From assembly GCA_039621445.1 (NCBI GenBank), contig CP154954.1, positions 40,417,572 to 40,481,571 of the forward strand: a stretch of 64,000 bases of DNA. Reading direction: 5' to 3'. The translations under genes were made by a program, and so were the position numbers. Each line of letters opens with the position of its first letter. Position 1 is the stretch's first letter. The notes under the pieces were generated by a model. That model made no database searches. It was not told where the DNA came from and saw only the letters and a list, made by a program, of their open reading frames with translations. The DNA is from Euglena gracilis (Eukaryota). This document shows, one piece after another, positions 1 to 24,540 of this stretch.

Positions 1-1
1 G

Positions 2-250
2 TTTCTGTGAGCAAACCCACCCTTCAGCAAACTAAGCACAGTGGTGACCAGGTTGTGCGCTGATGAAACAAAAACGGTCTTGGTGCACCCAGACTGGGTG
101 GACCAGTACCGGTCCCCCCTGCTTGAAAGGGTAACGGTGGCCATGGTTAAAATTTCAAGTGGGGTTCCCTTGTTTGTGGTGTGGCAGGTGCAAAAGGTGC
201 CCTCCCCTCTGTGGAACACTCTTGTGACTGTGGTGGACACAGTGCAATTC
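2..250 (+). pseudogene. Dam-like DNA N6-adenine methyltransferase domain (C-terminal half) upstream of RT
   Basis: Frame 2 reads FL*ANPPFSKLSTVVTRLCADETKTVLVHPDW. This is the NPPF catalytic motif followed by the helix and hhhPxW strand seen in DIRS/phage Dam-like MTases. Confidence 0.75.
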
Positions 251-3200
251 AAAGTGGATTTTGAGCTTTTGGACCACAAAATTGTCAGTTGGCTCAGAAA
301 AGTTTCAAGAAATTGGAATTTGGATGAATTGAGACGTGAGACCAGGAAGTACCCCACAGTGGATGATGAAATGCAAGTGGATTTCCCAGATGTTCCTGAT
401 GTCCACCCAGCAGCAGGCACCCAAGCATGCCAATCCACCTGCAGACCAGCAAGTTTTTGAAACTCCAAGGTTTCCTTTGTGGACTGTTCCCCCCAAAGAA
501 TCAGAGGAATAGGTGAAAGAATGGTTGGACAATGTTCGGGTGTGTGAACCAATAAGTGAGCATGAAAACAGCAGTTTTTTGGGTGAATTGACAAAGGACG
601 TTGAAAGTGAGCTGAGCCTTTTTAAGGAATGAGAAAAGATGTGGATGTGAAGTTTTTCCAGCTGTCCAGGCCTGTGGAAGAGGTTCAGTTTGCAAAACCT
701 GTGAAGACTCCCAAGGCAACAATCAAGATGGATAAACTAAAGAGCATTTCCCAGGATTACATGAAAAGATTTTGACTTTGTGGGCCCAAACAAATGCTCA
801 GTGAAAAAGCAGCAAATTGTTTACTGAGAACCTGATTGGAGAATTTGATAAAGAATTTGAGAAATTCAGAGACCACCCCAGGTGGTATGAGCTTTTGGTG
901 AAATTTTCGGATGTTTTTGGACCATTGGCCACAATTTCTGAGTCTTCCCCCCTGCCTGTTTTGATGGACATAGCTGAAGCCTGAATGGGAAGGCAAACCG
1001 CTAAGGCAAAGGTGTTGGCCCATGCCCCAGGAGGATGAAAAAGTAATTGATCTTCAGTGTGAAGAATTGCTAAAGTCAGGGTTGATTGAGCAGTTCCCAG
1101 TTGGTGAAATCCCCCAGGTGTGCAGCCCCACATTTTTGGTGGACAAAAAAATGGTCAAGTACCAGAAGGACGGTCATTCATTACAGAAAATTGAATTCCA
1201 GAATCAAGGCACTTGCAGCGTTTTTGCCAAACATGGAAATTCGGACTGAAAGTTTGGTCAAGTGTCGGTTCAAAAGTGCCCTGGACATGAGGAGTGGGTA
1301 TTGGCAAATCGCAATCACAAAAAGCGCACCAGGTTTGTCTGAATTTTGCATTCCTTCAGGGAGGTGTTTTCGTCCGAAAAGGATAATATTTCGGTTGATG
1401 AATGCCCCAGGGATTTTTCAGGAGTTGATGTAAATCCGAACCTCCCAATGCCAAACGGTTTTGAGGGTGAAAAAGACTTTGAAGGATGGACACCTGGCTT
1501 CTTTTCCCGATGACACAGGGGTTAGTGCAAACTCTGAGGAGGACCATTCGTATCTTTTGGAAAAGTGGTTTGAAGTTCCAGAAAGAACCAAGTGAGAGTC
1601 AAATCGAGCAAATGTTCTTTTCTGAATAAGACTACTGACTACTTGGGCTTCTCGTTGGGATAGGGAATGTGGCGGCAAACAAGAGGAACATTGAACCAAT
1701 TTTGAGTTTTCGAGTTCAGAATCAAAGGTATTTGAGGCGAATGTTGGGAGCCATTAATTTTTACCGCAGACACATGGAAGGGTTTACATTTGACTCAGCC
1801 CCACTGACAGGTCTTCTGAAAAAGAATGTGAAATGGAAGTGGACTGAAAAGAAGGAGAGTTGTTATGCTTTGAAAAGGAAATTATCTTCCCTTGATGTTT
1901 TGGGTACCACAAGAAGTTCGGGAGAGATTGTTTTGGTGACTGACAGTTCGCATTTAGGAGGTGGTTCTGCATTGTTTCAGTTGCAAACCCTCCAACAAAT
2001 ACAAATTCCTGAGAATTTTCGAACAAGTGGTGTGAAGGTGGATGGGACCCAAGCAAATACCCCAGTGAAATGAGGTTGGTGCCCTTGGGCCACTACAACT
2101 GGAAATGGAGTGAAGCAAGAAAAAAATACACCACGTGGGAAAAGGAAATTTTGAGAAGTGTGTTGGCCATTGCTTCACAAACAAGGAATTTTCAAAATCT
2201 GCCAATTGTGCGGATGACAGACAATGTGGCAGCCATCTCTTTTCAGAAGGGTGAACCCCCTCTCAACAAACGACTGAGAAGGATGTATGTTTTTTTTACA
2301 CCAGTTCAAACTGAATATTTGTTCACGTGGCAGGTTGCAAAAATGAATTCTGTGATTTTTTTGTCTCGTGCTGATTTTGAGAACAAATTTGAAATTCATT
2401 TTGAGTAAGTAGCAAGGAACGCTTTTCAGAAAGTGGATGTTCAGCTTGACCTGTTTTCACAAAATGTTTTCAGCTTGTCCCACAGAGTGCAAGCGTCTGA
2501 AAAGGATTATTTGAGTTCAGAACTGAAAGAATTTTGGCAGAAACTGGAGGTTTCAAAACCCTGTTTCATTGACAATAACTTCTGGTTCTGATCTTCCAAG
2601 GCCATGTACTGTGAAGGAAAATTGGTTGTTCCGTCTCATTTGTTCAAGGTTTGTTTGGATGAATGTCACAAGGCAAGCAACCATGTTGGTGCTGAAAGGA
2701 CACTGATTTTTTATGAGCCATTTTCAGTCCAAGGTTTCCAAGAAAGACATGTTGGAAATTTGCAAGGCCATTGTGATGACATATGAAATTTGCACCCTTT
2801 CAAAACAAAACCGCCCCAGCGACCGTGGAAAGGTCTGTTCTTAACCCGTTCCAACAGTGAGCAATGAAGTTTTGTGTTTCGTTTTTGTGCAAATGGACCC
2901 CTACAATGGTTTTGACTATGTGCTGACTTTGGTCGACAATTTGTCCCATTTTTTTCCAATTCATTCCCACACAGAAAACGGTACCCGGAGAAGGTGTTTT
3001 GAGACTCATTTTGGACCGGTGGATTTCAGTTTTTTGGAAAATCGTCCGTTGTGAGGTATGACAACTACGTCGGATTCAGACAACCCAGTTGTTTTTATCA
3101 GACAGCTTTTAAAGGTCTAGATGTGAAATTATCGTTTTCGGTACCCCGGAACCCCAGATCAAACGATTTGGTTGAAAATGACAACAAAATGTTTTTGAAG

Positions 3201-3828
3201 CATATGCGAGCTTTGAACATATCTTCCAAGGACAAAAGTTGGGTTCAATTTATTCCTTATTGTACGTTTTTGATGAGTGTGCAGATTTCCCCGACAACAA
3301 TGTTGCCACGCCATGACATTTTTTTGGGAACAGCTTGGAGGTTTGTATTACCCCCAGAACCGGTGACAAACCCAGACACCCATTCCCGGCTTTTGGCCCA
3401 AATTCAGATTCAAGAAAGAGCTTCCCAGAGATTGAAAGAATTGAGAAAAAAAGATTTTGAGAGTGCCAACAAAGGGAGGGAACCAGCAAAAAATAAAGAT
3501 GACTATGATTTGGTGCACAACAAAGGATGGCCAAACACATGATGGCCCAAGCTTTCCCCGCCCTGGCAAGGACCTTTTCGGGTTCTCAAACCGAGGTTCA
3601 AATCAGTGCAAATTGCTAGCAGTCCATCTTTGGGAGGGGCCATTGATGTCTCTTCGGGTTTCTGCAAAAAAGTGGGAGGTTGCTTCACATGAAGAAAGTC
3701 TTTTGGAAGAAGACCCAGACCTTTTGACCAGTGATGTGGTTGTGGGAGCCCCAATGGAGGGTGACACCCCCATTTCAGACCAGGTAGGGGACCCCCTCTT
3801 CAGATGTCAGAAGAAGAACAAGCACAAC

Positions 3829-3990
3829 TGGGTTTTTACGATGTTTAGAAGAGTTGGAAGCACAAGTACCAAGGGGGATGGAAATTGGTTTGGTGGGAGA
3901 ATTTTCCGGCAAGCAGCAGTACATGAGAGCCTGTGGCTTCTTTTGTGCAACCAGGTGGCAGAATGAATAAGATTTTCAAGAATTATTGTG
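3829..3990 (+). pseudogene. Chromodomain at integrase C-terminus
   Basis: Reads GFYDV*KSWKHKYQGGWKLVWWENFPASSST*EPVASF, matching the chromodomain pattern Y-x-V...LVxW...S-T-W-EP. Confidence 0.7.
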
Positions 3991-4699
3991 TGGATCACAA
4001 TTTACAACCGATCCTACGCCAGGGGCTCAGAATGTTTTGTGACGTGTCAGAATGTGAATGGCGGTTGGCAGCACAAGAGACAGCCTGAGCTCCCCCCAAA
4101 TGTTTTGATCGTGCTTTCAGTCACGCGGGAGGAAAGTCATGCCACCCCAGAGGACCTTTTGGATTGTTTTTCGGTTCAGGAGACACCAACCCGCCTCGCC
4201 ATGGGTGGATTGTTGTCTAACCTTTGAAGGCTTTCAGACACAAACCTGCCATTGATGCAAGGAGTTTCGCCCAGGTTTGTGTTACCTTTGAATGAAAAGC
4301 CAACCAAGAAGCGAAGGGACCAAGTTGAACGTCGGAAGGAACGTCTTTTACCTTACTTTGCGTTGACACCTGTCGTTCTGAACCTTTTTGTGGACAATTC
4401 ATGTTGAACACCATTCATCAGTGCTTGAAAAACAGTAAAGCCATTTTTTTCTGTGGTGTGATGCCGTTTCGTCATGTGCCTGTGGTGCCGCGTCCTCTGG
4501 CATGGGGGGCGTATGCGAACTATTTGCTGACCGCTTACCTTACTGCCGGACTGGTTTTTGTATTCCTAATTCGAACTTTCCCCCCGCAGACTGCTCGCTC
4601 TGGTTCAATGTCTTCACATTGATTTGTGTTTACGTCTTTGGGACAATTGAAATATGAAGAAAATTGGGAATCCGAGGATTTCAAGAAAAAGAAAAGAAT

Positions 4700-5115
4700 T
4701 TTCTGAGACGTCCAGAATACAGCTTGGCGAAAACGTTTGGAATCAGAAAATTGGAGGGGGCACATCGGCTGGTCAAAAAAACTTTGGAAACTGTCGAATA
4801 CTTCAAACAAAAGTTGTGGTGGATTGAAAGTCCCCGTCATGGGCTTTTGCGTAAAAGACCCTGTGTTAAAAATTTGACTTTTTTCAATGTTGACTGTTGT
4901 CAGTTTTCAGACTGGGGATATCAAAAACCACCCATATCTGGGGGAGTGGGGGAGAGAAAATTTGAGCACGCTACAAAACAAACTTTGTGAGGGCCAGACC
5001 TGCCCGAATTTGATTCCTAGGGGGAGGATTCACCGTGAAAAGCTGGGATATGGAATGACAGTTGGAACTCAAAAAAATTGGAGGATGCCCAAACAACTGG
5101 TGGAGTGTTTGCTAA
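4700..5115 (+). pseudogene. DNA cytosine-C5 methyltransferase-like domain
   Basis: PEYSLAKT (after the eroded PC motif IV), LVKKTLETVEYF, WWIESPRHGLL (ENP motif VI), VDCCQFSDWGYQKP (motif VIII-like) and WRMPKQLVECLL (motif X-like). Confidence 0.7.
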
Positions 5116-5196
5116 CCGTGTTGGGAAAAAAAGCGGATATCGTAGGGAGGATTATGCAATTAGAAAAAGTTTCTATTGAGGAGTTCTGGTTAAGGC

Positions 5197-5446
5197 GAAC
5201 GGGATTGTTTAGCAACCAGCCAAAATGCCAGGTGTGAAAAGTTTTATGGGGAGAATGACGATGCCATGAAAAAGGATTGGGGGGAGGAGGAAACTTTGTG
5301 GATGAGCCCAGCCTGTACTTTGTGGCCTGAGGTGGATGATAAATTTGCAAAATTCCAATTGTCGGGTAATTTCTATTCACCCAGACTGGAGTAGGAGGTT
5401 GGTGAAAAAACTTGTGGCCATTGCTGTCAAAAAGATTTATTTTCCC
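5197..5446 (+). pseudogene. Dam-like N6-adenine methyltransferase domain (degenerate)
   Basis: Manual translation gives ERDCLATSQNARCEKFYGENDDAMKKDWGEEETLWMSPACTLWPEV, then a frameshift to RVISIHPDW. The D-x-F-A...NA, DA...W, W-x-(N)PP and hhhPDW spacing matches the DIRS MTase in this window. Confidence 0.65.
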
Positions 5447-6633
5447 TAGAGGACAAAGTTGTTTGGGGCTGATGGGAGGATTTTGAGGGATACCCTTTTT
5501 GGTGATGTGGGCCTAGTTGATTGGTATTGATAGAAGGCAACCCTCCCAGGGGGGGGCAGCCCCAGGGAAGAAAAAATTGGTGCGGCTGAAGAAAAAAAAA
5601 TGCCGAGGGGGACGAAAACCCGGGGAGGTGCGAAGAAAATTGGAGAGGACAGACAACTGCTGTTAAAAACACAGATACGGTTGGCAAATGGGGAGGAAAA
5701 ATGTCCAAGTTTTGATTGACACGGGGGCTTAGGCAAACCTCATTCAACAAGGGTTGATACGGGACCACCTAATGTATCTTACTAAGGACCTGTTAAGGTT
5801 TGAGACGGCCAATGGGCAAACTTTGGCGGGGGGAGCATATGCGCAAAGGTAAAAGGGATCGTTCAACAAAAATGGAATGCAGAAAGGGGTCCTGGGTGTG
5901 TGGAATATGAGGATAAATTTTATGAGGCAAACATCAAAGTTGACGAAATTCTTTCTTATTCTTTTATTAGCGGGGGCAAAAATGGGAAGTTTTACACTCC
6001 ACAAGGCGTTTGTGAAAGACAGCCGCGACCTTTTTTTTGCGGGGTGTTGAAAGACGGAGGGGCCGCAAAAATTGGGGGATGACACAAACTTTTCAGAAGA
6101 CAATGTGACTGTGGCGTACGGGGCTTCGTTTAATTTGCAGAAACTTGGTATTTGTTTGCTTTTGGAAGTGGTGGACCAGGAATTGCAATTTTGGAGTGAC
6201 GAGGACCTGGGGGATATTGCCACAAATTTGGAGGGAATTGACCCCCCAGTGCAAGTTGTCAACCAAATGAGAATTGCAAGAAATGGGAGGACGAAAAAGT
6301 GGATGAACGGGTGGCTAAATTATGTGAACAAGTATTGCAGGGTTACAGGGGGACGGTATTTCGGTCATCGCCATTTCCGGACCCCCCGGAAAGAGGGCAA
6401 TATGGATATGCACACGTACCGTTGAAGGAGGGGGCAAAGCCAACAAGACAGAATCCTTTTTTCATGCACGGTGAGAGGAAAGAGGTACTTGAAAAAACCA
6501 CACAAGGATTGCTTGACAAAGAATACACTGAGCCGTACACAGCCAAATATTCTGAATGTGTCCCAGACTTTTCCAGTACCAAAAAAAAACCACAATTTTA
6601 ATTGGAGGTGGTGGTGGCTGCTAAGGCGCGCTT

Positions 6634-6798
6634 GCAGCCATTTGCTTGCTTCGACCGCACTACCAGCCATTTGCTTGCTTCAGCCGCACTAGCAGCCATT
6701 TGTTTGCTTTGGCCACGCACGCCATTTGCTTGCCCGTTCCAGCGTCCATTTACTTGCTTCGGACCGGCCATTTGCTTGCTTCGGACCGGCCAATTGCT
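6634..6798. repeat. Degenerate tandem repeat, about 7 units of 22-28 bp (GCCATTTGCTTGCTTCGGACCG-like)
   Basis: Directly visible at the junction of two convergent truncated Gypsy elements. Confidence 0.85.
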
Positions 6799-8199
6799 TA
6801 GACCTCAGTGTCCCAAACAGCCAAACAAGGCGTCTCCCTGCTAATTTCTGCTGAAGAAAGCCACAGGTCGGAGTTCATTCGACGCGTATTGCTGGCTAAG
6901 ATCTCCGCCAACAGCGTAATCTCTGCTGTTGGCTTCCAGCACATAACGTTCGTACGGGTCCGAAACTTCGAGTACAACATTCTCCAAAAGCAAAACTCTG
7001 ATTTCCTCAAGGGCCTCGCGCATTTGGTCATCCCAAATGACATGGTGTTGTCAACCGCCTGCGTTTTGAGCTGTTTGGTGAGGGGCACCGTGATTTACGC
7101 GAATTCCCTCCTGTATATTGCATAGTATTGGGATAGTCCCAAACATCCTTTGAGGTGGGTAATCGTCTTGATTACTGCAGGGGTCCATTTCTTAACGTCC
7201 TCAAGTTTGCTTGGAGCGGCGTTCTGAAATCCATTGCTGAGGATGTTTCTGCAAAATTTTATAAGCTCGCAAAACAAATGCATTTTCGCGCCCTTCGTGA
7301 AAAGCGCAGGTTTTTGGAAGGCGGTTTATACCGCGCAAACACGGTGAAAGTGTGTGTCGAGGATATCCCCGCTCGATTTTGCGGACGCTGGTGGTATTCC
7401 CACCAGCACATCATCAATATACACAATGGCAAACGGTAAGTCGCGGTAAACCCATTGGATCATGCGGTGAAACATGGCTGGGCCACTCCTAACACCCGTG
7501 GGGAGTACCGTCCATTGGTACGAAAGTCGTGTATGGTTGTGATTCGGGGTGTAAGTGCATTTTGTGAAAAGCATTCTTCAGATCGAAAAAAAAATTGACC
7601 ACAACCGGTTTTCCAGTCGCTTAGTGATCGAAACCTCCGTCAGGGGGAGCGGGATGAGACCATCCCTTGTCCGGGAGTTCAGGTACCGGTAATCCAGCAC
7701 CAGTCTCCATTTCTTCTGACCTGAGGGGTCTGGGGGTTTAGGAACTAAAATTGCCTGGTATGTGCACTCACTTTTCGAGGATACAGTCCAGTTGCGTTGA
7801 ATAAACTTCTCAATCATTTCATTGAGAGCCTTTCAACGTTCTCTCGAACAACAAAATAATTTTCTGTGCACCGGCTAGCTCCTTCCTTAAGCTCAGACTT
7901 GCAAACGCCGAACAGACCGCGTATTGCGGGGTCGATTTCGCACTGGTATACTGCTTTTTCCAGCACATCATGAAATTCGCGGTGATCCGTGAACAGAATT
8001 CGCTGACTTAAGATGCTGACCTGCACTCTCGATGACCGCGGAAACTGCCAGGGTTCCATCCCTGTGGCTACTGAGCTTCCTCGGCACCGCGATTTCGGAA
8101 ATTCCCATTGCATCGAAGAACCATACACGCAAAATGTGTTCTTTGTAAGGGTGGTATTTTTTTACCACATTTTACCACAAAAGTCGTCGAAAATCAGTA

Positions 8200-8458
8200 C
8201 ACTAGTGGGTAAATAACACCAATGAAAACGGATGTACGATAGTTAGGTGAACCTTTCCGCACCCGGAATGATGGGTATGAGAATAACTCCACCGGCTTCA
8301 TCCCGCAGAATTTTATCAACCGCACATTCAAGAACCTTTGGTTTTGTGTGCATCCAAAAAACCGTATCACCCCAAAATTTATCAAATGCGTTGGAGTGTT
8401 GTGACTAATGACGTGGCAAACGGGCATGCGCTTTGGATGAGAAGGCATCAATATCCAA
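8200..8458 (-). pseudogene. Dam-like N6-adenine methyltransferase domain between protease and RT
   Basis: A minus frame absent from the ORF track reads LDIDAFSSKAHARLPRH*SQHSNAFDKFWGDTVFWMHTKPKVLECAVDKILRDEAGGVILIP. The NPPY-type motif is eroded. Confidence 0.65.
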
Positions 8459-11400
8459 TCAAAGGAATCAGCCAATGTCGTGATTTTGGAAAACCGCCTT
8501 TCCAAAATGCGATATTGACCAAAATCGAAAGCATTCAATACACGTCTCGCGTATTCATGCACCCGCTTTCCGTGTTGGAGTGAAGGAACACAATGAATGG
8601 ATCCACAAACATGCGGGCTGTCTTCTACCACCTCAAGGGTTAATCCCAAGGGAGTTTGGACAGGCTGGGGTTTTCCCCATTCGGCATCAAATACACACCA
8701 AGTGTGATCGAGATTCTGATTAGGAAGGACGCATTTCGCGTTTCCAAACAACGAGGCTAATCCGCGTTGTTGGAGTACTTGGTGTATCTCCACGCATTGC
8801 GGGCTACAACCAACTGTATCCTGGGGTGTGGACTTCGTTTTTGAAATTGCCTTTTGAACTAAACATCCACAATCGAAATCCGATTGGGTGGAATTTCTCC
8901 TGCAGTGCACGCATTGGAGGAAGTGAGGTGATGTAACGGGTACTTTTTTAAGTGGATGTCGACGGCATTAGCCGGTGAGTCTTGTACAGGTGTGCCTGGA
9001 TTCGGCAAAACTGGTGTAAAACGGAGTGGTGCTTTAGCAGGGCGAGTACTCGTTACCATACGTACTGCAGGCCTTTGGGCTTTCGTCTTGGAACCCAGTG
9101 AAACGGCTGGTGTACCGCTACTCGCTTGCCCTACCTCATGTGTAACGCACGTAGATGCGTCATTGAGTAGGGGGGAGGCTTTCTCCGTAACCCGGGTGTG
9201 GAAAACGGTGGTTGGTATGGTGGACACCAAGCGTTGCCAAAGGGTTGGTCGTCATGGTGGACGCCAACGGTGATGGTGGTTTGGGTGGCAATGCGGAGGT
9301 GGGTGCTGTGCGCAAACCGTGTGAGTGGCAATCCACAACAAATCCATATCGGCGTAAATGTGGGTATCCCAACATTACCCGTCAGACCCATGAATTCCGG
9401 ACTCGTAACCCCAAATATTGGTGAAATGTTGCAAATTTGTTGGGGGTGCGAATTATGCTGGGAATTATGGGCAAGAGTACCTCGAGCATACATCCCAAAG
9501 CACCAGCGCACATGGGGGTGTATTCCGCGGTTGTAATTTTGATCGGTTCCTTGGCGTTTACCAAGAGACGGGTCGGAATGAACCCCAACCGAAAAAGCAG
9601 TGCAATGCGACAACCAGTGTCAATTAGAATTTTTACTTCGGTGGAAAATTTTTGAATGCGTATTTTTTTGCTTGGGCGATTAACTACATTGGTGGAACGC
9701 AGAGTGAAGGGCCAGGCGGAAGTGCTTTTGCATGCCAACTTTTCCCATGAACCCTTTCCTACTTTTCTCAGCATTCCTAGCGGAAATGTGGAGTGGAGGG
9801 AAGGGGACCCGAAATAATTCTGTGTACCGACCGGAAGGCGGATGGGCAGGTGGGGCAAGGTTGATCACGTCTTACCTCCATCTGTTCATCAGCCCAGAGG
9901 TCCGTGCCCTCCGACCTCGGGCACCCCTACTCCAAGTCCGAACCGGCCGCATAGCCGGCAACGGACTTTTTGGCGGAATTGGTGGAATTCAATGAGCGCA
10001 CCGCCATTCGGGCCTCATTAAATACCCGTCCGAGGTCTCATCCCCCTCCCTGCCCGTGGCCGGAGTGTCCTCTTCCAAACAAGGTACCTGGAAACCAACT
10101 GTTTGCCGGTTGGAGGAGGTACCACGGTCCTCGCGGCGCTTACCGCAATTTCCGTAGCCAGGACGTGGGGAACGACATCTGGGACATTTGGATGAGTGGT
10201 GTTCCTTGGAACCGCAAAGTGGATAACGGGATTTGTGACAAGATTCCGCATAACGGGGAGAACGGTACTCCGTTCTACCGTCAAACCGTCGTGGTGAACG
10301 GTTTTCCTGTGGACCATGAGCGGTGTTCCGGGGTTGACCCCGTGACTCACACGAAAAGGATGATCCAATTCGCGATCGGGATCGTGAAGAATAGCAATTG
10401 AAATCCTGTTTTCTGGCAGGAGGACCAGGTGACCGATCTTGAGAAGGACGGGTTTCCCGACCATCACGTGAAAGTGACTTGGGCCTACTGCCGCCAAAGT
10501 AGTTGTCCGAGGACCGTCAAGCGCCCGATTGGCGTGAAAACGCCGAGGAATCTGATCTCCGTGAGGTGGTCGAGCCCCTTGGACTTCCAATACGCTTTCA
10601 GGCATCGGGGTTCCGGCATTCCCGAGACATGTGACTAGCTCTGCACAAAAAGCACAGCTTATCCGTGCATTGGTGTGAAGAACGCTGAGTTCGCTTTTTT
10701 GCACCCATGGTGGGTTGTCGTGGTGACGTGGGTGATTTTTGTAACGCATTACCCGCGCCCGCAGGGATTCCCGTGTTCAGATGCGTTCGGAAAGCGGACT
10801 GTGTCTGTCCCAAAACTTGTGTGAGCTTGAGTTGCTTTGACACATAATTCTAACGTTGTGAAAGAGTCATTACGTGCCACGCCAACTCCTTGCGATGGAT
10901 ATCCTTCACGAGGGATGGTGTGAAATGCAACAAAACCGCATCGAATTGTTCGCGCATTTGCTTCTCGCTAAGGTGCTAACCATTTGGCATACCAAAGGTC
11001 AAAGGATTTCCATTTACAATCCGGTGGCGCACTTTGTCGTCATTTGTTTTCCGGGGTAATCCTGGTGACCAAGCTTGAGTTTATTGAAGCGTATTGCTCA
11101 ACCAGTTCATCAAAGGGTACGCCATTACGTATCACCAACTTACGTGCGCGTTCTCGCTCCTTCCCTGGTAGGCAATCAATTAATTTCATCTTGGCTACCT
11201 CGGGATTCTGAACTTGGGTGTGTCCCTTTAGTGCCCAGTAGTACTCCAAGTCCCGAAGAAATTGTCTCCGTGTGGTTGGATCACCGTCCCACTGAGGTTT
11301 CACCTTGTTCGCGTTTGCGTCGGTGCCCTTGAAGTTTCTCTGGTAACCCGCTGACCCTCTGTTGTATACTAGCGGTTTGGGTCCGGGTAATTCTTAACAC

Positions 11401-13239
11401 CAAACACATTTGGCGTATTTTCCGTTTCCAATGTGATCTGTGCAGTATTTGCCGCACCAAGTGTAAGGCTGGCAGGATTTACCTGCGGTAAACGCGAGAA
11501 ACGTGGTGAACTTCTCCCGGTGTGGCAGTTTCCCGCGGAAAACCCGAAGGATGATCTGTTATTCCAATTGCGAATGCGACACATAACCAATACCAGGTGT
11601 GGGGTGTTGGCACATTCCTTGCACAAGGGTGGAATGATGAATTTCTTGGTGGAGACTCGAATTTTCGAGCAGTGAATCAATTTCCTCATCGGAAACATCA
11701 TCTGAAAAGTGGTTTTGAGGTGTGGGCAAAGGCAAAGGTGGTACATTACGCGTTTTCGCGGATGGTTGTACCGTGTTCGCGGTAGAAGTAGGGACTCCCA
11801 TTCCAGAAACGGAATTCTGAGAACGCAATTCCGGGACATTTGGAATAACAAACGCAGCGCTTACCGCGGTAGGTGGTGGCACAACCGGTAACACAGTGGA
11901 CACTTTATCCAAACTCGCGGACAAGTCATGTACGGTTTCTTCCAAATGTTCCACCAACTGGAGTTGGCCGCAAATACGGTCAACCTCAGTGTCCAAATGC
12001 CTAATGCGTTTGTGGTAATGGGAAAAACCTTCCAGGTCAGGCAGCTTTTCAAAAACCGCGTGTAGGTTTTGGACAAGATTTCTTTGGCACTCCTGCACAT
12101 TCCGGAGTTGTCCCGAAAGCACTCTTATGGCATTTGAAAAACTTTGCAGTTGGCGGGGTGTCTTGGTGTGGGTTTCTGCGGTGGTTCGCGAATTTTCCGC
12201 GGTTGACATTTCCAACGAAGCACAAATTAGGCCATCCAACCGTGAAACCTCATCTTGCATGGATCTGGCATTCCGATTCACAGATTCCTCAAGTTGAACC
12301 AAACTCGGGCAAAATGTTTGCAAGGTTTCCTTGTTGTCAACAACCATTTTGCTGTAAAAAGTGCGAATTTCTGGTGACTCGGATATCCGAACGCGCGAAA
12401 TATTGGGTAGTGAGCACATTTCCGCTAATGTGCAGGACGACAAGGTACAATGGGTTTCATTAATACCGCCAATGTCCGTTTGCAATTTTCGTTGCGTGAA
12501 ATCCAACCATTATGCGCAAGCCGCGTTTTTCGCGTCCAAGAAGGTTTATCCATCCTGATTGGCGGAACAATGGCAGGATTTTTGCTCCATTTGTATGATT
12601 CATCCCTCCAAAATCTGACTTTGCATACAGGGAACAAAATTATCTTGCACTTTCGCCTGAAATTGCTCCAAATGCTCGATTTGCGAGCACAGAGCAAAAT
12701 CCTTTGTTGGCCGTCTTCCAAATAAGCTGAGAGTGTGGCAAAATGCTCAACCGCGACAAAGTTACCGATTGCGGCATTTTTGGGGTGGCATTTTGCGCGT
12801 GTAACTGTTGCTGCCATTGCAGTAGCATTGTTGAAAATGGTTCAACGTCGGTAAAAAGATGGTGCATACCATCTTGCACGTGCAGAAACTTAGAATCATT
12901 CCGCGTTCCCGCTTCATGCAGTGTTTCACTGATTTGTTGGAATTTTTGTGGGAGTTGGATGCGCAAAGTACTGTCAACAATTTCTCTAAAATGCTGAAGG
13001 TCTTTCCCCGCGCTTTCAAAATTAGGTTGGCAATAATTGCTGATTTCCTGCAAATATTTCCAGAAATATTCCAGTTTCGTGTTGGAAACCCTTTGATTGT
13101 CCTCATCGATCTGAAAAACCTTGTTGAGAATGGTTGTCCGTTCCGCAACGCAGTGGTGGACATGCAAAATTTGCTTGCTCAGCGGATGATCCGCTGGAAG
13201 TTGCCGAAAATTCGGTAAACATCACCGGCGGTGACGTTG

Positions 13240-14529
13240 CAAGGTTGGGTTTTGGGTTTTGGGTCCCCCCCCCAAAAATTTTGTTTTTTTGTGTACCCCC
13301 CCAAAAAAACACCAAAAATTTGTATTTTTGTGACCACCTCTTTGAAAAAATTCACCCTTAACCCCTAACTACCTAAAAAAGGCTGATTTTGGCCAAGAAA
13401 AGCCATTTTTTTCAAAATTTTCTGCGCCTGCGGAGCCAAAAAGCATATCCCACCCCTCTCTGGGCCCTCCGGGGGAGTCCGGCTGGACCCACCCTGGGTA
13501 ATCCCTGGGGCTGCAGCCGGGATCGAACTACGGACCTCGCGTGCAAAGCAGGATTCCTGTCCAACACGTCAAAAAGGATGGAAGTGCACCGGGGGGGCAG
13601 TGCTTATACAAGGCAAGTGTTTATACACCGGGGGGGGGAGTGCTTATACAAGGCAAGTGTTTATTTACCGGGGGCGGGAATGGTACAACAAAATTGTGGA
13701 TTCTGATAAGGGGTGACCGTTGGAATCCAGATTGTTATTTTCGGAGGGAAAATCATGCCCTCCAGAATTGTGGCCTTTGATTGGGGGGGGTGGCAGGGGT
13801 GTGATCATAGTAAACCCTCCCCCGAAATAATCCCCCCCAAATAATACCCCCCCCCCCCTCGGGGTACGACTTCGGCCACCAAAATATTACCCCCCTCCCC
13901 CAGTTTCAGGCCGACAGCCCGGATTTTTGACCTGAAAATGTAGGTAAAAAACACAATCTCTGACAATAAATTACTAAAAAAATCTATTTTTCTGGATTAT
14001 CTGGCCTCCAAGAAATGCTAAATTTCATGAGAACGTACAAAAAATTATCCCAAAGGTGGTTTTGGCACTATTTTTGCTCCTATGGAACTTCGAAAAATTT
14101 TGGGAATTAACACCCCCCCTTGGGCCGGGACTTCGGGCGAAAAAAATATTACCGCGGGGGGTATTATTTGGGGGGTTTTACATGTCTCGAACAGAAAATT
14201 GCATTTTGGGGCATTTTGAAAAGGCCTTGTGGCCCCAAAAAATTTCAGGATCCAAAATTGTGCTAACTAAACTAACTGGACTAACTGGGTGGGGGATGGT
14301 CTGACTACTGAAAAGTACACCGCCAGAAAGTGTTTCAAGCAGGCGGGGAGTGTTCAGGACAACTATGAGCGACAGCCCCTTCGTGACTTTGCGGATGTCG
14401 ACCATTGTTTCCCATGGTTTGCTCTCATCGTCAATGGAGACCCAAAAAGTTGATTTTTGGGTACCCCCCAAAAGTTGTTGGGCTGGTTTTAGGACCCCCC
14501 CAAAAATACAAAAACAAAACCCAACCTTG
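13240..14529. mobile_element. Non-autonomous TIR element inserted in the Gypsy gag region
   Basis: TIR CAAGGTTGGGTTTTG at 13240, reverse complement ending at 14529, and 7-bp TSD GACGTTG (13233-13239 and 14530-14536). It contains a nested IR element at about 13810-14182. Confidence 0.85.
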
Positions 14530-15712
14530 GACGTTGTCCCTCAAATAATCATCATATTAATCCACAACGGAAAAGGAACCAGAGATTTCCGGAACCACCA
14601 GACGCATATCTCGTTTCCATGGCAATGAAGGGAAAAAAATTGTTTCCGCGGGTAATCGCCGCAATGCGCGATAGGCTGTGTGGGGGGATGGTAATTGAGG
14701 GGGGGTTTGAAAAATCACGGCGTTTCCACCGAGGTATACTCCAAAAGGCCCACGGGTGCTTCCACCAGGTATCGTTTTGGTGTGAACAGAGCAAAGGGCA
14801 CATACCCCTCACTTTGTTCATGGGTAACACCGGTGACCAAGTGTACTTGGGCAACGGGCTCATCCCCTCGCTGCATCAAAGATGGTTGAACCGGGATGGA
14901 GGAAGGCCATTTGCCACCTACATCCTACACAATCAATGACAATGATGACGAAGAAGGCTCGTCGCCCCCTTGCAACAAAGGCGTTTGCCCTGTGATAATG
15001 ACAAATGGATCAATATGTCTTGGTGTGGTTGTTGTTTGGCGGGTCGGGAGGTGGAATTTGTTTCCATCGAACCATTCCAATCTCCGTCATCTTCTTCAAG
15101 GCGGGCCTATGAACTCATCAACAAGTCATAATCAAATTGATGGTTGGAGATTGAGCCCCGCACCTTTTGAGATGGCTATAAAGGCAAAAATCCAAAAGCT
15201 CACAATAGTAAGCAGTGAAACACGTACCAGGAAGGTTTTATCGGCGTTTACCGACGGAGCCCCCAGAGACCTGTATCACCCTTTCGGTCACTCAGAGTAA
15301 GGTCCATTTTGGACAATATTTTACATAGTAACCTGGGCGGACCAGGCTAATTTCCACCGAAATGGTCGAATGCACCCGTCTGGATGTGCTCATTTCTTGC
15401 AACCAACAATCCCGCTGAATGTTTTTCTTACCATTACACCACGATCATCATGAAACCCACGGGTGCCCTGGCTTTGGAGGCCTCCTGGAACACCCATTCG
15501 GTTACTCGGAGTCAGTGCTTGAAGGTTGTAAAGAGGCCAGGAACTGTACTTTCACCGTTTTTCACGGCCCAGTACGATCCTCACCACCAGTCAACCTCAG
15601 AGAATTTCTGTGTGGTACGGCTGTGTGGGATCGTTGTCGAAATGTGCTACCAAGTGTAATACTTGGTAGTCTTTAATTCTGTTTGTGATATGTGAGTAGG
15701 CTCGTAACCTAA

Positions 15713-15723
15713 CTCTGCTACCA
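15713..15723 (-). promoter_or_regulatory. Primer-binding site complementary to initiator tRNA-Met 3' end
   Basis: Minus strand reads ...CGTACA-CT-TGGTAGCAGAG: an LTR-like CA end, a 2-nt spacer and a tRNAi-Met-type PBS upstream of the minus-strand gag. Confidence 0.65.
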
Positions 15724-17580
15724 AGTGTACGTCCAAAGCTTTTCCTTTTCCTCTTTTTTGGAGCCTTTCGAAAAGGCCTTTTGCTTTCTCCTTGGTGCGC
15801 AACCTACTTATGAATGGGAAAAGTCTTTGGAGTAAAAAAGTGGATTTTCCCTTTCTGTTCCTAATTCCCCAAGAGGCAAAGCACAATTCAAAGGCTTTAG
15901 ATGTTTCCTCCGAAACTAAGTTCGACTGTTCTGAATTTTTTCCTTCCGGCGAATCAAACCACGAAATTTATAGACAGTGAAACAAAGGAATACCACTGAG
16001 GGGGAAGGAGAGAAAAGTGCAGACGTGTCCAGGGGCAGATCCCGGTAGGGTCTGTCACGATCGTGCCAGCTCTGGTTTCCACAGTGGTGCAATCGTCACT
16101 GAACCTACTCTGCAGGTATCCTACAGAGCTGGCACGTGCATGGTACACGTCCCAGGTTCTCTTTTCCTGGTGGTTCCTTCAGAGGATTGTGCCTGTTGAA
16201 GGAAGGAATGCTAAATTTCAATCTGAGTTCAAGAGAACAATTGTCCAACAATTCAAAAAGTCAAACTGGAAGGCCAACCAAAAGCAGCAAATCAATTTCG
16301 ACAGAAGAAGAGCAAGCGGCGCTGGGATGCAAGGTGAAGGCGTTCTTCCGCTACCCCCCCCTGCTACACTTTTTTAGCTTTAAACCAGGCTTTTCCTCCC
16401 CCACCCTACTGCTTCAGAGGCACCCTCCAAGGATTTGGACAAAAGCACCTTCACCCCCAACATTTTTTTTAAATATTTCTCTGCCGGAACCAAGGCTCTG
16501 GCTGAAATCAGGGACCAAAGGCCGCAAAAAAAAGGAGTTTTTTGGGCACGTTTTCCTATATTTACTGGAGCGGCGGGTGATCGGCCGGCCGAAGAGCCCC
16601 TTCCGCGCAAGGTCACTGAACCGGCGAGAGGAGAAAACCATGTAGCACAGGCTTCTTCTTTCTACGTTTTCCATTGAAGGGCATTTTCTTCAGTGTCCTC
16701 TTTCTGAAAGGCAAAACGTGAACACCTCCCCAGAATTTTCTACACACGAAGAGGCTACAGCCCACCGGCACACAGACAAGATGCCAACCCTTCCGGCGGA
16801 CTCTGAAGTGGCAGCCCCCACTGCAAGCCTTCCCGATAGCCCTCGCGGAGCGCAAGCAAACGCCCCGAATAGGGACCCCCGATCCCTTGCCCCATCCCCC
16901 CTCCCATCCCCACAATCCTCTTTTCCCACCTTCCCAGCCCTTCCCCAACTCCCACTCATCCCCCTCCAATCCGAGTCCCTAGTCGATATCCCTCGAAACT
17001 CGTCCCAAGTCTCCCTCCTGTAACCGAAATCAGTCCAGCCCCAGAGCTGATACCCGACCCCCTGGAATCCACCTGGGGCCCCACCACTCAGCTTTTCCCC
17101 GTGACCCCACCCTTCCCCCAGATGATCCCTTCCCTGCCTTTCCCAGGCCTATTCCTGTCCGAGGTGCCCCACCTGTGGGGCGTCCCGGAGCTACAGAGTG
17201 AGCGGGCCTTCGCGGTCCTACCGGTGCCTGTGCAAAGCCCTGGGCCACCGAGGAGCCCAGATTAGGGAATGCGGGCCATTACTTATCATCCCACCGACGA
17301 GCAGAGTGCGAGGGCCGAGACAGGATCCCCGACCCCGTTGCTGACCTGATCCCATCCGTGCATCTGTCTAAGCAGTCTGCCCTGCCGCCAGTGCCAGTGT
17401 TAGGGCCCTCGCCGTCTCAGACAGCGTCGCCGTCAAGCCAAATCATCGCCGCACCGGATGGAGGTCCGCCTCCCTACCTGTCCCCAAGCGAACACCCGAG
17501 TACCGCCGCCGTGCACGCGCACCTCCGCACCCCACTATCGTCCGTCCGGCCGTACAAGGTGCCGCGGCTAGGACTCTCTG

Positions 17581-21154: not shown

Positions 21155-22670
21155 TCACCGGTCCATCCCCCCCCCATTCTCCCAGGTCGGTCCAAGTGTT
21201 CCCCGGCGGGAGGTGGGTGTTTCTGGACACCCCTGTTCTTTGCCATTCGGACTCCCACGACACAGGAAGGGGGAGGAAGGGACCAAGAGGGCGAAGCACA
21301 AGAAGATGGTGAGGTCCTGCTTTCCTTGCCGGCTGTTCTGTTCTGGTGTGTTTGTGCGTGCGCGGGGGGTGCTTCTTACTGCGCCTTTGTTGCCGGAGTT
21401 GGCGATGAGGTGGCCTCCTCCGACACCTTGGCGAAGCTGAACCGTCGTGGCGCCGCCCCCCCCCCCCCTCTCCCTTGGTCGCTTGGTGCCCCCCCCCCCT
21501 GGTGGGGATGGTTTTCTCTTTCTGGTGTGTTGCTGGGTGGGCGGTTGGGGCTGCTTGGTTGGGGGTCCCTTTTCTGGTTGGGATGGTTTTCTTTTTCTGC
21601 CGATTTTTGGGGTGGGAGGGTTGGGTTCACCATCTTCTTGTGCTTCACCCTCTTGGTCCCTTCCTCCCCCTTCCTGTGTCGTGGGAGTCCGAGACCATTC
21701 GGGCTCCGCACTGCGAGATGGTGAGGTACTGTGCACCCCCCTTTGGGCCATAATATTTTTAATTTTTGAAACGACTCCCAGCCTTAAATAATGAGCTTGG
21801 AAGGCCCCAAAACTTTTCCACTGACCCAATTGCTGGACTTCTTCCACTTGCAAACCAGCATTTTTCCACCATAAAACCCCAGCTCCTCTGGTGCTGTGGG
21901 GTTTCCAGTGGGTGGTGTCCACCCCCCCCTCTTGCAGAATTTCTCTGGTCAGGGAATTCACCCTTTCTGATGTCAACGGTCTTTTACCATCCAAATACCA
22001 TAACAAAATATTTTTGTGTCCAACCATGTGGGCTGTCCTTTCCACATACTTTTGCAATAAATGCCAAGGGCTCAGGAGGGGGGTGTGTGGCAGATTCAAA
22101 ACTTCCTCCAATCTTGGGAATTGCCACCCTTTCCTTTGCAACAAAATGAAAATTTTTTCTCCCACGAAACTGATTTTTCGCTGTGTCCTGGCTAAATCAA
22201 CCCCCCTGTGGAGGGCCAAAAGCCTCCAACAGATGATGAGTCTGTTTCTGAGCTCTTTCACAGATAGGTCTGAGAGGGGTGTGGAATTCCCCACGATGTT
22301 TTCTAGGAAATCAGTGGGGTCCCAAAAGTGGGCATACTTGCAGACATTGGCATTCCACTTCCTTTTAAATGGAGCCAGAAGAGGTGAAAATCTCAAAGAC
22401 CCACCCTGGGAGTAATAAGGCTGCTGCATATGCATTTCGTTCAGTGTTGATGCTATGAACAGCAAGATCAAGGATGGCTTCAGCCATCTTGGGGACTGTG
22501 CACTTCTGCAGAGGCACCCATTTTTGCAATAATTGGCCCATCAATGTCCTGAAGGCTGAGCCATATCTTTTGACATTTCCCAGATTTTTTATGTAAGTGT
22601 CGATACTGGACATCGAAACTTCCTGGGATTGTAATATTTGCCTGACACAATCAAGCAGGCCAAATTCCAC
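21155..22670 (-). CDS. DIRS tyrosine recombinase (split by one frameshift at about 22410)
   Basis: Catalytic motifs LLALHRGVDLAR (R), WKPHSTRGAG (HxxR) and VQQLGQWKS...FQAHY (W, Y). The N-terminal part is in ORF 22365-22670. Confidence 0.9.
21631..21727. repeat. DIRS internal complementary region (ICR)
   Basis: 21631-21692 is the reverse complement of 21247-21308, and 21693-21727 is the reverse complement of 25838-25872. Confidence 0.92.
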
Positions 22671-23679
22671 CTTGGGGGGGGGGGGGCATCTCCTCCCCCC
22701 AGCAGTTGGTGAATAGACCCCATTGGGTGGGGGGGACCAGCAAAACTTTGCTGCCTGGCTGTCTGTTTGACATTAATTGGCGCCACCATGATGTCGAAGC
22801 CCAGTGGGGTACGATCAACAGCCATGTTAGGTCTGGGTTTAACATTAATCTCTGAACCCACTGGGGAATGATGCTCCAGGGAGGGTTGGCATAAACTGGG
22901 GGGAGGCCCCTAAAATCGGCCCTCAAGGCATCCACCAGCAAAACCCCTTGGTGGGGGTATCGACGAACAAACTGGGGAAATTTTTTGTTGCTGGGTGTGC
23001 AAAACATGTCCACCTCTGGGGTAATGTCCTTTCTGAAAAATTTCAGAATTTGGTGAAAGATGTTCAAGTTTAGGGTATAATCCCCTGGGTCCTTTTGCTC
23101 CCTGGTCAGGGAGTCTGCCAATTGCTCTTTTGTGGGAACCCAAACCACCTGCAAATTGATTTTCTTTTCCTGACAATGATACAGCAGGGGTTTTAAGATG
23201 GAATTTAGGTATGGCTTTCTGCCTCCCCATTTTGTTAAATAACTTACAGCCACCTGGCTGTCCACGTGAAGCATTACTGTTTGTTTTGGTTTGGCCGGAC
23301 TTTTTACTGTCTCCACTGCTGACATCAACTCTTTTTGATTGATGTGAAGGATGTGCAGGTCTCTCCAAAAATCCTGCACTTTTTGGCCTGAGTTTTTGTC
23401 CAGCCCCCCCCCCCCCCATTGCCAGGTGCTGCTGTCTGAGAACAGTTCCTGAGAGGCCTGGGATTGAAAATCTCTGCCCACACCTGGCTGCAAAAACGCT
23501 TTTAACTCCACAATTTGATCTTTGACCCCCTGGGGAATGTTTAGGGTGTGGTCCCAACCCCACTTTGTGTGCAAATCCACCATTTTGCAAAGTTGGTCTG
23601 TCAGAATTCTGAGAAATGGCATTGAGACTAGGTAACTTCTGACTTGACCTACAATGGAACTGAGCTTTCTGCAGCTCAT
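22651..23679 (-). CDS. DIRS RNase H plus N6-adenine methyltransferase
   Basis: RNase H motifs LFSDSS, HINQKELM, HVDSQVA and LADSLTR. MTase motifs VDMFCT, VDAL, VYANPPW and LLIVPHW. Confidence 0.92.
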   Translation of the reverse strand: MSCRKLSSIVGQVRSYLVSMPFLRILTDQLCKMVDLHTKWGWDHTLNIPQGVKDQIVELKAFLQPGVGRDFQSQASQELFSDSSTWQWGGGGLDKNSGQKVQDFWRDLHILHINQKELMSAVETVKSPAKPKQTVMLHVDSQVAVSYLTKWGGRKPYLNSILKPLLYHCQEKKINLQVVWVPTKEQLADSLTREQKDPGDYTLNLNIFHQILKFFRKDITPEVDMFCTPSNKKFPQFVRRYPHQGVLLVDALRADFRGLPPVYANPPWSIIPQWVQRLMLNPDLTWLLIVPHWASTSWWRQLMSNRQPGSKVLLVPPTQWGLFTNCWGEEMPPPPQGGIWPA

Positions 23680-24540
23680 TTTTTTGTGCTGTGAGCACTT
23701 TGCCCAGCTCCTTTCTTAAGGATTTTAGTTTTTCCTGAGGAATTTCCAGCTGGCCTTTTTTCAAGTTGACCCACTGGCCCAAATGTTTTATTTCCTGTGT
23801 GGGTTCCAGACAGGACTTGGGGAGGTTTAATCTGAAACCTGCCAGTAAAAGGTCCTGTTTTATTTCTGCCAAATGCTGGGCTGCTGTCTTTTTGCTGGGG
23901 GCTAACAGCAAAATGTCGTCCAGGTAGATGAAAACTACCTTTCCCTCTTTTCTCCATTTCCTCTCCCAGACTCTCATGAGAGTCATAAATTTTTGAGGCA
24001 GGCTGCTGATGCCGAAGCATGCAGCTTGAAACTGCCATGTTTCCCCCCCCCCCACCTGCATGCAAACATGCCTTTCTAGACTGCTGTGCAGTTTTAAGTG
24101 GAAATAAGCATCTTTCAAATCTATTTTTCCACAGAACCAACCTTTCCTTAGATATGGGAAGATATTTCCCATATGCTCCAGTCTGAACTTCTGGGGGGTG
24201 AAGTGGAGATTTAACTGTCGACAGTCTTCAATCAGTCTTTCCTTTGTCTTTTCCCCTTCTTTTTTGGAAATGATGAAGTAAGGGACCAAATGTTTTGCCT
24301 CCTCTGGGGGGATTTGCCTGGTTGCCCCTGCACATTCGTATTCTCTCAGAATTTTCTGGGCAATCATTATTTCTTGGGGAGTTTTGAATGGAACTTTTAA
24401 GGACATTTGAGGGGGGAGGGGAAGATCTGCCATAACTCCCTCCCTTATCAGGTTTAATACCTCTCTGCTGGCTCCTGCCTTGACCCAATGGGGGATGCTG
24501 GCCTGCAGGGCCTTGTAAGGGGGTACCCCTGGGTGTAATG
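23677..24540 (-). CDS. DIRS reverse transcriptase (part of ORF 22910-25324; shifts frame into RNase H at an A-run near 23680)
   Basis: PYFIISKK, RLIEDCRQLN, KIDLKDAYFHL, FGISSLPQKF, FIYLDDILL and LNLPKS. Confidence 0.95.

Follow-up and report, generated by a model that had tools for sequence, protein, structure and literature searches.

A dead, doubly truncated copy of a Ty3/Gypsy-like retrotransposon with paired C5-cytosine and Dam-type methyltransferase modules in Euglena gracilis, and possible virus-type kin of its cytosine methyltransferase

The window considered here is a stretch of 64,000 nucleotides of Euglena gracilis DNA (assembly GCA_039621445.1, contig CP154954.1, forward-strand positions 40,417,572 to 40,481,571), and all coordinates below count from its first letter. 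Positions 4715-6628 on its forward strand very probably hold the dead remains, cut off on either side, of a chromovirus-like Ty3/Gypsy retrotransposon of E. gracilis or a close euglenid, of the kind recently named EpiLTR, a long terminal repeat (LTR) element that encodes two methyltransferases. The fragment is collinear with residues 76-715 of an intact relative, the predicted protein P0001, through all four of its modules: a C5-cytosine methyltransferase (DNMT), an N6-adenine methyltransferase-like domain of the Dam type, an aspartic protease and the first residues of a reverse transcriptase (RT). An earlier note on this DNA had proposed that succession from the letters alone, and the order is indeed present, far beyond chance (tblastn of P0001, E 2.9e-56). 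In a frameshift-aware alignment of P0001 with the window, made with our own dynamic-programming implementation, residues 76-708 align to 4715-6608 with 304 of 608 aligned columns identical (50%), 11 frameshifts and 5 in-frame stops. About 36% of the length of the polyprotein survives.

The nine peptide strings quoted in the earlier note are all found (9 of 9) in a three-frame translation of 4500-6700, on the forward strand between 4700 and 5730 and in the order quoted (Table 1). They are split over three frames with stops between them, and the stretch is the wreck of a coding region with no open polyprotein. The single open reading frame (ORF) with intact catalytic motifs that might have been expected is found in the intact relatives, whereas the window copy is spread over three frames and its motifs are lost or mutated. 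Homology to the DNMT begins at 4715, directly past the catalytic Pro-Cys (PC) pair, so that motifs I and IV are absent and the PC cysteine is lost. Motif VI reads ESP and not ENP, the motif VIII block DCCQFSDWGYQKP is retained, and the only frameshift of this module lies near 4931. The Dam remnant has MSPA in place of the catalytic NPPW; its frame shifts near 5134, 5166 and 5344 and is broken by stops at 5191 and 5447. At the other end homology stops at 6608-6628, the very start of RT, and nothing is left of the remaining RT, the RNase H, the integrase or the chromodomain. The copy is a dead pseudogene fragment truncated at both ends, and with PC, ENP and NPPW lost or mutated it therefore cannot methylate anything. 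No second copy of the element was found within the window (blastn, tblastx, E 1e-3), no further forward-strand match to any of the 47 family proteins (E 1e-5 or better) places another piece of it elsewhere in the window, and no tRNA or Rfam family was found in the window.

Table 1. Features of the window, in coordinates counted from its first letter
Feature	Position	Strand	Details and basis
Second decayed Gypsy/chromovirus-like element, of another family, Dam-bearing	2-4034	+	5' part runs off the window
Left flank, outside the element	4587..4714	+	AG acceptor 4588-4589; RNA read ends and depth
Frame with PEYSLAKT, WWIESP and DCCQFSDWGYQKP	open 4658-4987	+	three-frame translation
C5-cytosine methyltransferase (DNMT) remnant	4715..5133	+	P0001 residues 76 to ~213; tblastn and alignment
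Frame with RMPKQLV	4878-5234	+	three-frame translation
DIRS-type Dam (N6-adenine methyltransferase-like) remnant	5134..5504	+	P0001 residues ~214-345; Pfam and alignment
Frame with RDCLATSQNARCEKFY, DAMKKDW and LWMSP	5194-5391	+	three-frame translation
Frame with IHPDW	5306-5446	+	three-frame translation
Dam-protease linker, poorly conserved	5505..5698	+	frameshifts near 5593 and 5699; stop 5514; alignment
Aspartic protease remnant	5699..6050	+	~P0001 residues 404-500; stop 5730 right after LIDTGA
LIDTGA	5712-5729	+	three-frame translation
Protease-RT spacer and first RT residues	6051..6628	+	to P0001 residue 708-715; tblastn and alignment (the latter ends at 6608)
Short tandem repeats (periods of 29 and 22) where the fragment breaks off on its 3' side	6635..6799	+	Tandem Repeats Finder
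RT fragment of another LTR element	7005-8077	-	directly after the tandem repeats
DIRS-like element	21158-25600	-	largely open; three frames of 809, 354 and 461 amino acids

The two methyltransferase pieces were identified by different routes. The Dam-like assignment holds in the window itself, where the frame 5194-5391 matches the Pfam family Dam (PF05869) at E 1.2e-7 with 32.0 bits against a cut-off of 28.1. Eight fragments of the window were scanned against Pfam (E up to 10), and a relevant family was returned only for the Dam piece, with no match on the DNMT-like pieces. Likewise, phmmer against the PDB gave nothing relevant for both DNMT-like fragments or for the query protein P0002. In a word-indexed search of 5.8 billion proteins, the 110-amino-acid frame 4658-4987 finds P0001 at E 1.4e-22 and 65% identity; restricted to longer proteins, the search gives 4 matches from 54 candidates at 60-65% identity (E 1e-20 to 1e-22). 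The homologous module of P0001 scores above the Pfam DNA_methylase cut-off (26.7 against 22 bits) and has a DNMT fold, and it is through such intact relatives that the window piece is identified as a DNMT. The profile matches anticipated for both enzymes are thus seen for Dam in the window and for DNA_methylase in P0001, but not for the window's DNMT piece by itself.

P0001 has 1763 amino acids, and its single open frame runs from C5-DNMT through Dam, protease, RT, RNase H and integrase to the chromodomain. Pfam matches on it comprise DNA_methylase (PF00145; residues 15-116, E 4.8e-6), Dam (residues 227-289, E 9.6e-12), RVT_1 (E 3.7e-18), RT_RNaseH (E 2.3e-22), Integrase_H2C2, rve (E 1.4e-10) and Chromo (E 2.2e-9), and a protease of the LIDTGA type lies between Dam and RT. 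A search with residues 1-360 of this protein yielded 45 polyproteins of 1003-2513 amino acids from several sources, 41-77% identical, that share the N-terminal module. The seven modules of P0001 were mapped by phmmer on 47 proteins, namely these 45 polyproteins and 2 short proteins in which Dam finds no match. The order DNMT-Dam-protease-RT, followed in part by RNase H, integrase and chromodomain, occurs in 7 of the 45 (P0001, P0005-P0008, P0015 and P0017), in uninterrupted frames of 1020-1911 amino acids. Both methyltransferases are carried by at least 21 of the 45 polyproteins, Dam being detectable in 21 of the 47 proteins, and the motif NPP[W/F/Y] is kept in 21 of 21 Dam modules. The module search also places a chromodomain in P0005 and P0008.

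These relatives bear directly on whether the two methyltransferase stretches belong together. The DNMT-like and Dam-like pieces might come from different elements juxtaposed by nested insertion or by assembly, their tandem order then being an artefact, and there are grounds to consider this: the window is a mosaic of decayed retroelements, several relatives have odd domain orders, and the preprint that describes EpiLTRs cautions, in the part of its text available, about nested insertions and chimeric assemblies in E. gracilis (bioRxiv 10.64898/2026.05.21.726589). Yet the order DNMT-Dam-protease-RT stands in unbroken frames of seven diverged relatives on different contigs, and the window copy is collinear with P0001 across all four modules. 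The junction between DNMT and Dam, 'FNFKREDYAVRN', is moreover conserved between P0001 and the window and is likewise seen in the short proteins P0084 and P0134. A juxtaposition of this kind is thus highly improbable, and the nested-insertion scenario that the earlier note had named as its own refutation is unsupported, given collinear single frames in seven independent relatives; the tandem domains are those of one element. Its description as Gypsy-like also stands, since the relatives carry a DDE integrase (rve) and a chromodomain and no tyrosine recombinase. Two other assignments were tried and rejected. Membership of the DIRS group conflicts with the rve (E 1.4e-10) and Integrase_H2C2 domains of the relatives, and no recombinase is found in the window copy; a host DNMT gene conflicts with the decay of the copy and its protease-RT context.

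Within the one element, the modules have not all diverged to the same degree. Between P0001 and four of the six other polyproteins with the same order, identity is 57-77% in DNMT, 64-78% in Dam, 52-75% in the protease and 69-81% in the integrase, so that the two methyltransferases are conserved to about the same degree as the latter two; the linker in these four is 40-50% identical, less conserved than DNMT and Dam. Across all six the linker is 34-50% identical and falls below its flanking modules in five of the six, one comparison having aligned 9 residues only. In P0015 and P0017 the Dam module is merely 26-28% identical though the DNMT reaches 52-55%, and therefore the DNMT-Dam pairing may have arisen more than once, having possibly been assembled repeatedly.

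The DNMT module of intact members is compact, at about 210 amino acids, and has motifs I, IV (PC), VI (ENP) and VIII (QKPTR) and a very short target-recognition insert containing Cys and His. In alignments of the 47 modules and of 57 short proteins (set A1), motif I reads LDLFSGtGS and motif IV reads PC-x-YS, with PC present in 47 of 47 modules. Motif VI reads W-x-ENP (ENP in 42 of 47 modules, ETP in the other 5), the motif VIII-like block is DYCQFSDWGYQKPTR, of the QKPTR type, and the short insert holds a near-invariant Cys, Cys and His, with a C-terminal iP..lv.yl helix in the module. Residues C103, E142 and N143 are invariant across the 57 sequences of set A1. The module goes undetected in a single-sequence search against solved DNMT structures, and NCBIfam gave a single weak dcm match on eight module proteins. 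The profile of set A1 reaches DNMT1 chains at E 7e-5, spanning motifs IV-VI, and the tRNA enzyme DNMT2 at E 0.4-0.5 only. An AlphaFold2 model of A1 has a mean predicted local distance difference test score (pLDDT) of 79.6, with values of at least 90 over about residues 40-250, and Foldseek with this model finds 189 PDB chains at E 1e-3 or better. The top matches listed are all C5 DNA methyltransferases: DNMT3A (2.6e-8), M.HhaI (4.8e-8), DNMT1, MET1 and DIM2. By its motifs and class I fold the family's DNMT module is a C5 DNA methyltransferase, and catalysis on DNA cytosine is predicted.

The Dam module spans about 130 amino acids and is of the DIRS type with its NPP[W/F/Y] motif. A model of the DNMT-Dam di-domain of P0134, built from 15 aligned sequences, has a mean pLDDT of 80.6, a predicted template modelling score of 0.52 and two clean halves. 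Residues 1-168 match DNMT3A and M.HhaI at Z ~8. The best neighbour of residues 178-311 (model m8f04c7fc751a) is PCIF1, an mRNA cap adenosine-N6 methyltransferase, at Z 10.5-10.9 with a root-mean-square deviation of 2.4-2.8 Å over 119-130 residues (2.4-2.6 Å over 120-130 residues at Z 10.9). T4 Dam (Z 8.1), the rRNA adenine methyltransferases KsgA/Dim1 (Z ~8) and E. coli Dam (Z 7.7) come lower.

This ranking raises the question of substrate. The two modules could be real and still not form a pair that writes 5-methylcytosine (5mC) and N6-methyladenine (6mA) on DNA, with Dam acting on RNA or an RNA:DNA hybrid or serving as a non-catalytic binder, or with the DNMT having another substrate. Besides the higher rank of PCIF1 over T4 Dam and KsgA/Dim1, the available text of the preprint (10.64898/2026.05.21.726589) reports no gain of 6mA in E. 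coli, states that the first catalytic subdomain of bacterial Dam is absent from eukaryotic DAMs, and proposes a DNA-RNA hybrid as substrate; with that assay negative and the Dam fold closest to PCIF1, there is room for RNA or an RNA:DNA hybrid. The unchanged NPP[W/F/Y] motif in every Dam module points the other way, as does the higher 6mA that the same text reports on DAM-LTR insertions than on other LTR elements. The DNMT module, for its part, keeps PC and EN(P), has only DNA C5-methyltransferases among its top fold matches and reaches DNMT2 barely at all. On balance we consider this alternative, in which the pair would not write both DNA marks, unlikely.

The DNMT module also leads a life outside this element. 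Among 1.84 billion representatives, 2883 clusters (50% identity) are matched by P0002 with E no higher than 1e-3; E stays within 1e-10 for 1439 of them and within 1e-30 for 215, and these matches span far more lineages than the two species reported so far. In polyproteins the cassette occurs before Dam, after Dam, after the protease, between RNase H and integrase (locus L005, P0016 and P0033), at the C terminus and in proteins that lack Dam. It also lies in the middle of P0047, an RVT_2 (Copia-type) protein. Such placements show it passing from one retrotransposon lineage to another.

In metagenome contigs, a scan for the cassette yielded 585 confirmed loci. No retroelement module lies nearby in 77 of the 80 loci that were kept, and in 58 of the 80 the cassette is a closed frame, 200-250 codons long, with an end-to-end match to P0002 residues ~42-238. 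These stand-alone relatives are 32-51% identical to P0002, and the contigs that carry them are low in GC. Five long loci (L035, L071, L077, L049 and L057) were examined through Pfam matches to their 44 ORFs, and none of the five has an RT or integrase context. Three of them hold virus-type genes, one each: Capsid_N, the N terminus of a double jelly-roll capsid protein (E 2.2e-9), a Pox_A32 ATPase (7e-7) and a D5_N primase (7.7e-10). The remaining two hold only methyltransferases. Relatives are further encoded by 169 IMG/VR contigs, which among the 80 listed are mostly 5-29 kb long, two being labelled GVMAG, and the phage families phrog_757 (E 1e-11 to 1e-20) and phrog_363 match the cassette. 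The nearest detectable relatives of the cassette thus appear to be stand-alone genes of about 210 amino acids on small virus-like contigs, an association that is new as far as we have seen, and their context looks like that of a small DNA virus, a polinton-like virus or a virophage. The cassette itself has the look of a complete small gene of virus type.

In a quick unrooted IQ-TREE phylogeny, 47 retrotransposon-borne and 55 stand-alone modules are parted by one branch with a Shimodaira-Hasegawa-like approximate likelihood ratio (SH-aLRT) support of 96; P0002, P0004 and loci whose best match covered fewer than ~170 query residues or held a stop were omitted. Since the tree is unrooted, no donor can be named. 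The virus-like company of the stand-alone genes might suggest that the DNMT-like stretch of the window is itself a piece of an integrated small DNA virus and no part of a retrotransposon. This is extremely unlikely: the stretch continues collinearly into Dam, protease and RT of the same polyprotein, the retrotransposon-borne modules are set off from the stand-alone ones in the tree, and the window piece shares 60-65% identity with retrotransposon-borne members, whereas the 32-51% of the stand-alone genes was measured against P0002 and not against the window piece. A broader proposal on origin, which we put forward tentatively and hold to be somewhat more doubtful than not, is that the EpiLTR DNMT is a whole small gene of viral type and not a captured host DNMT. 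It would be a freely moving cassette with at least six positions in Pol, sister to the C5-methyltransferases of polinton-like viruses or virophages of aquatic protists. If this is true, gene flow between small DNA viruses and retrotransposons would be the source of the 5mC half of EpiLTRs.

A function for the paired enzymes can be sketched from the order of the domains. The two methyltransferases would come first in the Pol product, ahead of the protease, and could either be cut free by it or work together as a di-domain. On the simplest reading, in line with the preprint and with de Mendoza et al. 2018, they would mark the element's own new DNA, whether cDNA or a fresh insertion, with 5mC, 6mA or both; self-methylation of cDNA, which the earlier note had suggested, likewise stays an inferred role, also for the family as a whole. 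The available text of the preprint describes a host genome in which CG methylation is close to the default, and 5mC would make a new copy resemble it. The same text ties 6mA to active promoters and permissive chromatin, a mark that would suit a new copy, and the chromodomain would steer integration. As for a precedent of activity, the accessible part of de Mendoza et al. 2018 (PMC5890265) reports de novo CG methylation in yeast by SymbioDIRS-Dnmt3 domains, which are of a different DNMT type.

Several observations weigh against reading the window fragment as a remnant of an EpiLTR whose enzymes act on DNA. The window copy has no LTRs, gag, RT core, integrase or chromodomain, direct repeats of at least 60 bp that could represent LTRs were not found in 1-16000, and the assignment of this copy to an LTR element appears to depend on its relatives. 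The closest intact relative is merely 65% identical in the DNMT piece. The relatives themselves are machine-predicted proteins, and nested insertion or the merging of gene calls may lie behind some of their less common domain orders. Structurally the Dam module comes closest to the RNA cap m6Am methyltransferase PCIF1 and not to a DNA Dam; and, in the available part of the preprint (bioRxiv 10.64898/2026.05.21.726589), dam-deficient E. coli gained no 6mA from the expression of eukaryotic DAMs, and E. gracilis expresses its LTR elements at low or undetectable levels. Identity with the described EpiLTR family is not proven, as it is judged by description only against a preprint text whose available part gives no domain order for the Euglena elements.

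The surroundings of the fragment tell of a repetitive region. From one DNA run, 6695 contig pieces align to 3000-9000, 1045 of them at 99% identity or more, 2042 at 95-99% and 3608 at 90-95%, and the region therefore belongs to high-copy repeat families; the window copy is genomic debris of such a family. Just left of the fragment, TATTTTTTTTC is joined at the AG of 4588-4589 in 6 RNA reads from a run with the same species label as the DNA, and the E. gracilis spliced leader ends, on its 3' side, in the conserved 12-base motif TATTTTTTTTCG (PMC4778363, from the part of that paper available). From this short motif and these few reads the host is most likely E. gracilis or a close relative. Some trans-spliced transcript family shares this left flank. 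RNA reads pile up 13-16-fold in a 55-base hot spot at 4660-4714. They run into unlike sequence on both sides, and therefore come from diverged paralogs and not from the window copy, and the exact position at which they depart, 4714/4715, marks the 5' breakpoint of the fragment. A 23-base piece of the reads' continuation past 4714 finds no counterpart in the window even with 3 mismatches allowed, so what the fragment interrupted is not taken up again inside the window. Over 4809-6617 the RNA depth is at most 1.0 in every bin, about 5-56% of each run having been read.

Other retroelements lie in the same window. The second Gypsy/chromovirus-like element keeps a Dam tail (ANPPF...HPDW) at 11-460, RT at 1125-1430, RNase H at 1729-1974 and an integrase-to-chromodomain stretch at 3033-4034 (tblastn), and its CpG observed/expected ratio is 0.37. 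The DIRS-like element has a ratio of 0.19, against 0.65 for the whole window, and matches RVT_1 at E 4.2e-13 and, weakly, Dam (E 0.0018) and Phage_integrase, a tyrosine recombinase (E 3.3e-4). A faint match to PCIF1_WW (E 0.18) was also seen in a DIRS-like frame of the window. The RT fragment on the reverse strand matches RVT_1 at E 1.6e-8 and has P0043 as its best relative.

The earlier note knew of no LTR element with both a C5 and an N6 methyltransferase, but the combination is already in print: the dual-methyltransferase architecture is confirmed here and was known before. The preprint (bioRxiv 10.64898/2026.05.21.726589, May 2026) relates, in the part available, that DIRS-derived DAM domains moved into Ty3/Gypsy LTR elements several times and that DAM-LTR insertions are enriched in 6mA. 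It gives the name EpiLTR to LTR elements with DAM, DNMT and a chromodomain, found in Cymbomonas tetramitiformis and E. gracilis, places their DNMTs as sister to DNMT4, and speaks of a 'structurally distinct configuration' for those of E. gracilis; its authors call the combination previously undescribed. The literature searched holds no other description of a dual element or of the virus link, and 'EpiLTR' appears in no other relevant paper of it.

Set beside that definition, the Dam module is present both in the window (5194-5391) and in P0001, and a DNMT in the same Pol frame is found at the level of the family; in the window copy the DNMT is homologous and lies out of frame with Dam. The chromodomain is seen in P0001, P0005 and P0008, the window copy ending at the start of RT. 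As for the Ty3/Gypsy core, the window holds the protease and the first RT residues, and RT, RNase H and rve are found in relatives that are known from proteins alone. The copy most likely belongs to the described Euglena family, in a comparison made by description only, the available preprint text giving neither a domain order nor sequences for the Euglena elements. It could also be a new member, an element of the same kind from a host or lineage outside the preprint, such as another euglenid, or a Euglena family with another domain order. The missing domain order in the available text leaves space for this, as does the shortness of the 12-base spliced-leader motif, and the family is very diverse, with 45 polyproteins of 41-77% identity from several sources. 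Still, E. gracilis is one of only two hosts that the available text names for LTR elements with DAM, DNMT and a chromodomain, and other Dam-bearing elements share the window, one of them DIRS-like and one a second Gypsy remnant, as described there for Euglena. The sparse RNA reads, from runs read to about 5-56%, fit the low LTR expression reported there for E. gracilis. A new member is consequently rather improbable, and membership of the described Euglena family remains the preferred reading.

A retrotransposon with writers of 5mC and 6mA and a reader of chromatin suggests that the epigenetic state of mobile elements may be of their own making and not only imposed by the host, an idea that is already in print in the preprint, as far as its text is available. 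The window adds a dead copy and an independent confirmation from raw sequence, with DNMT, Dam and protease in a single frame in many diverged relatives. What remains of value lies in the apparent link of the DNMT cassette to small DNA viruses and in its mobility within Pol, both of which bear on the origin of retrotransposon DNMTs.

Among known systems, the E. gracilis EpiLTR of the preprint is the closest by description. It shares with the window family a Ty3/Gypsy-like LTR element with a Dam-type methyltransferase, a C5-DNMT and a chromodomain, the last known from the window's relatives, and the same genome has the euglenid spliced leader, DIRS elements and other Dam-bearing LTR elements. 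On the available text no difference is demonstrable, the window copy being a decayed fragment that lacks LTRs, RT core, integrase and chromodomain. The Cymbomonas EpiLTR is likewise chromovirus-like with Dam, DNMT and chromodomain, and its DNMT falls in one clade with that of Euglena according to the available preprint text. It carries the DNMT at the 3' end of pol, whereas in the window family the DNMT comes first, directly before Dam and protease; relatives with a C-terminal DNMT were also found (P0044-P0046).

More distant systems share single parts. Retrotransposon DNMTs of other types are known from Symbiodinium and Klebsormidium (de Mendoza et al. 2018, PMC5890265, in the part available), where KnitGypsy-Dnmt3, SymbioDIRS-Dnmt3 and SymbioLINE-Dnmt carry a C5-DNMT in Pol or ORF1 and self-methylation of retrotranscribed DNA was proposed. 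Their DNMTs are of the Dnmt3 type or a separate type, and the part of that paper available describes no Dam in these elements, in contrast to the Dam-paired, compact ~210-amino-acid module of the window family. DIRS elements have the same type of Dam module (PF05869) with NPP[F/W/Y], but they use a tyrosine recombinase and carry no DNMT, whereas the window's relatives combine a DDE integrase with an aspartic protease and a chromodomain. The stand-alone C5-methyltransferases of about 210 amino acids, together with phrog_757 and phrog_363, resemble the DNMT cassette from end to end; they differ in being separate genes, with no polyprotein around them and, in three of five loci, with neighbours of virus type.

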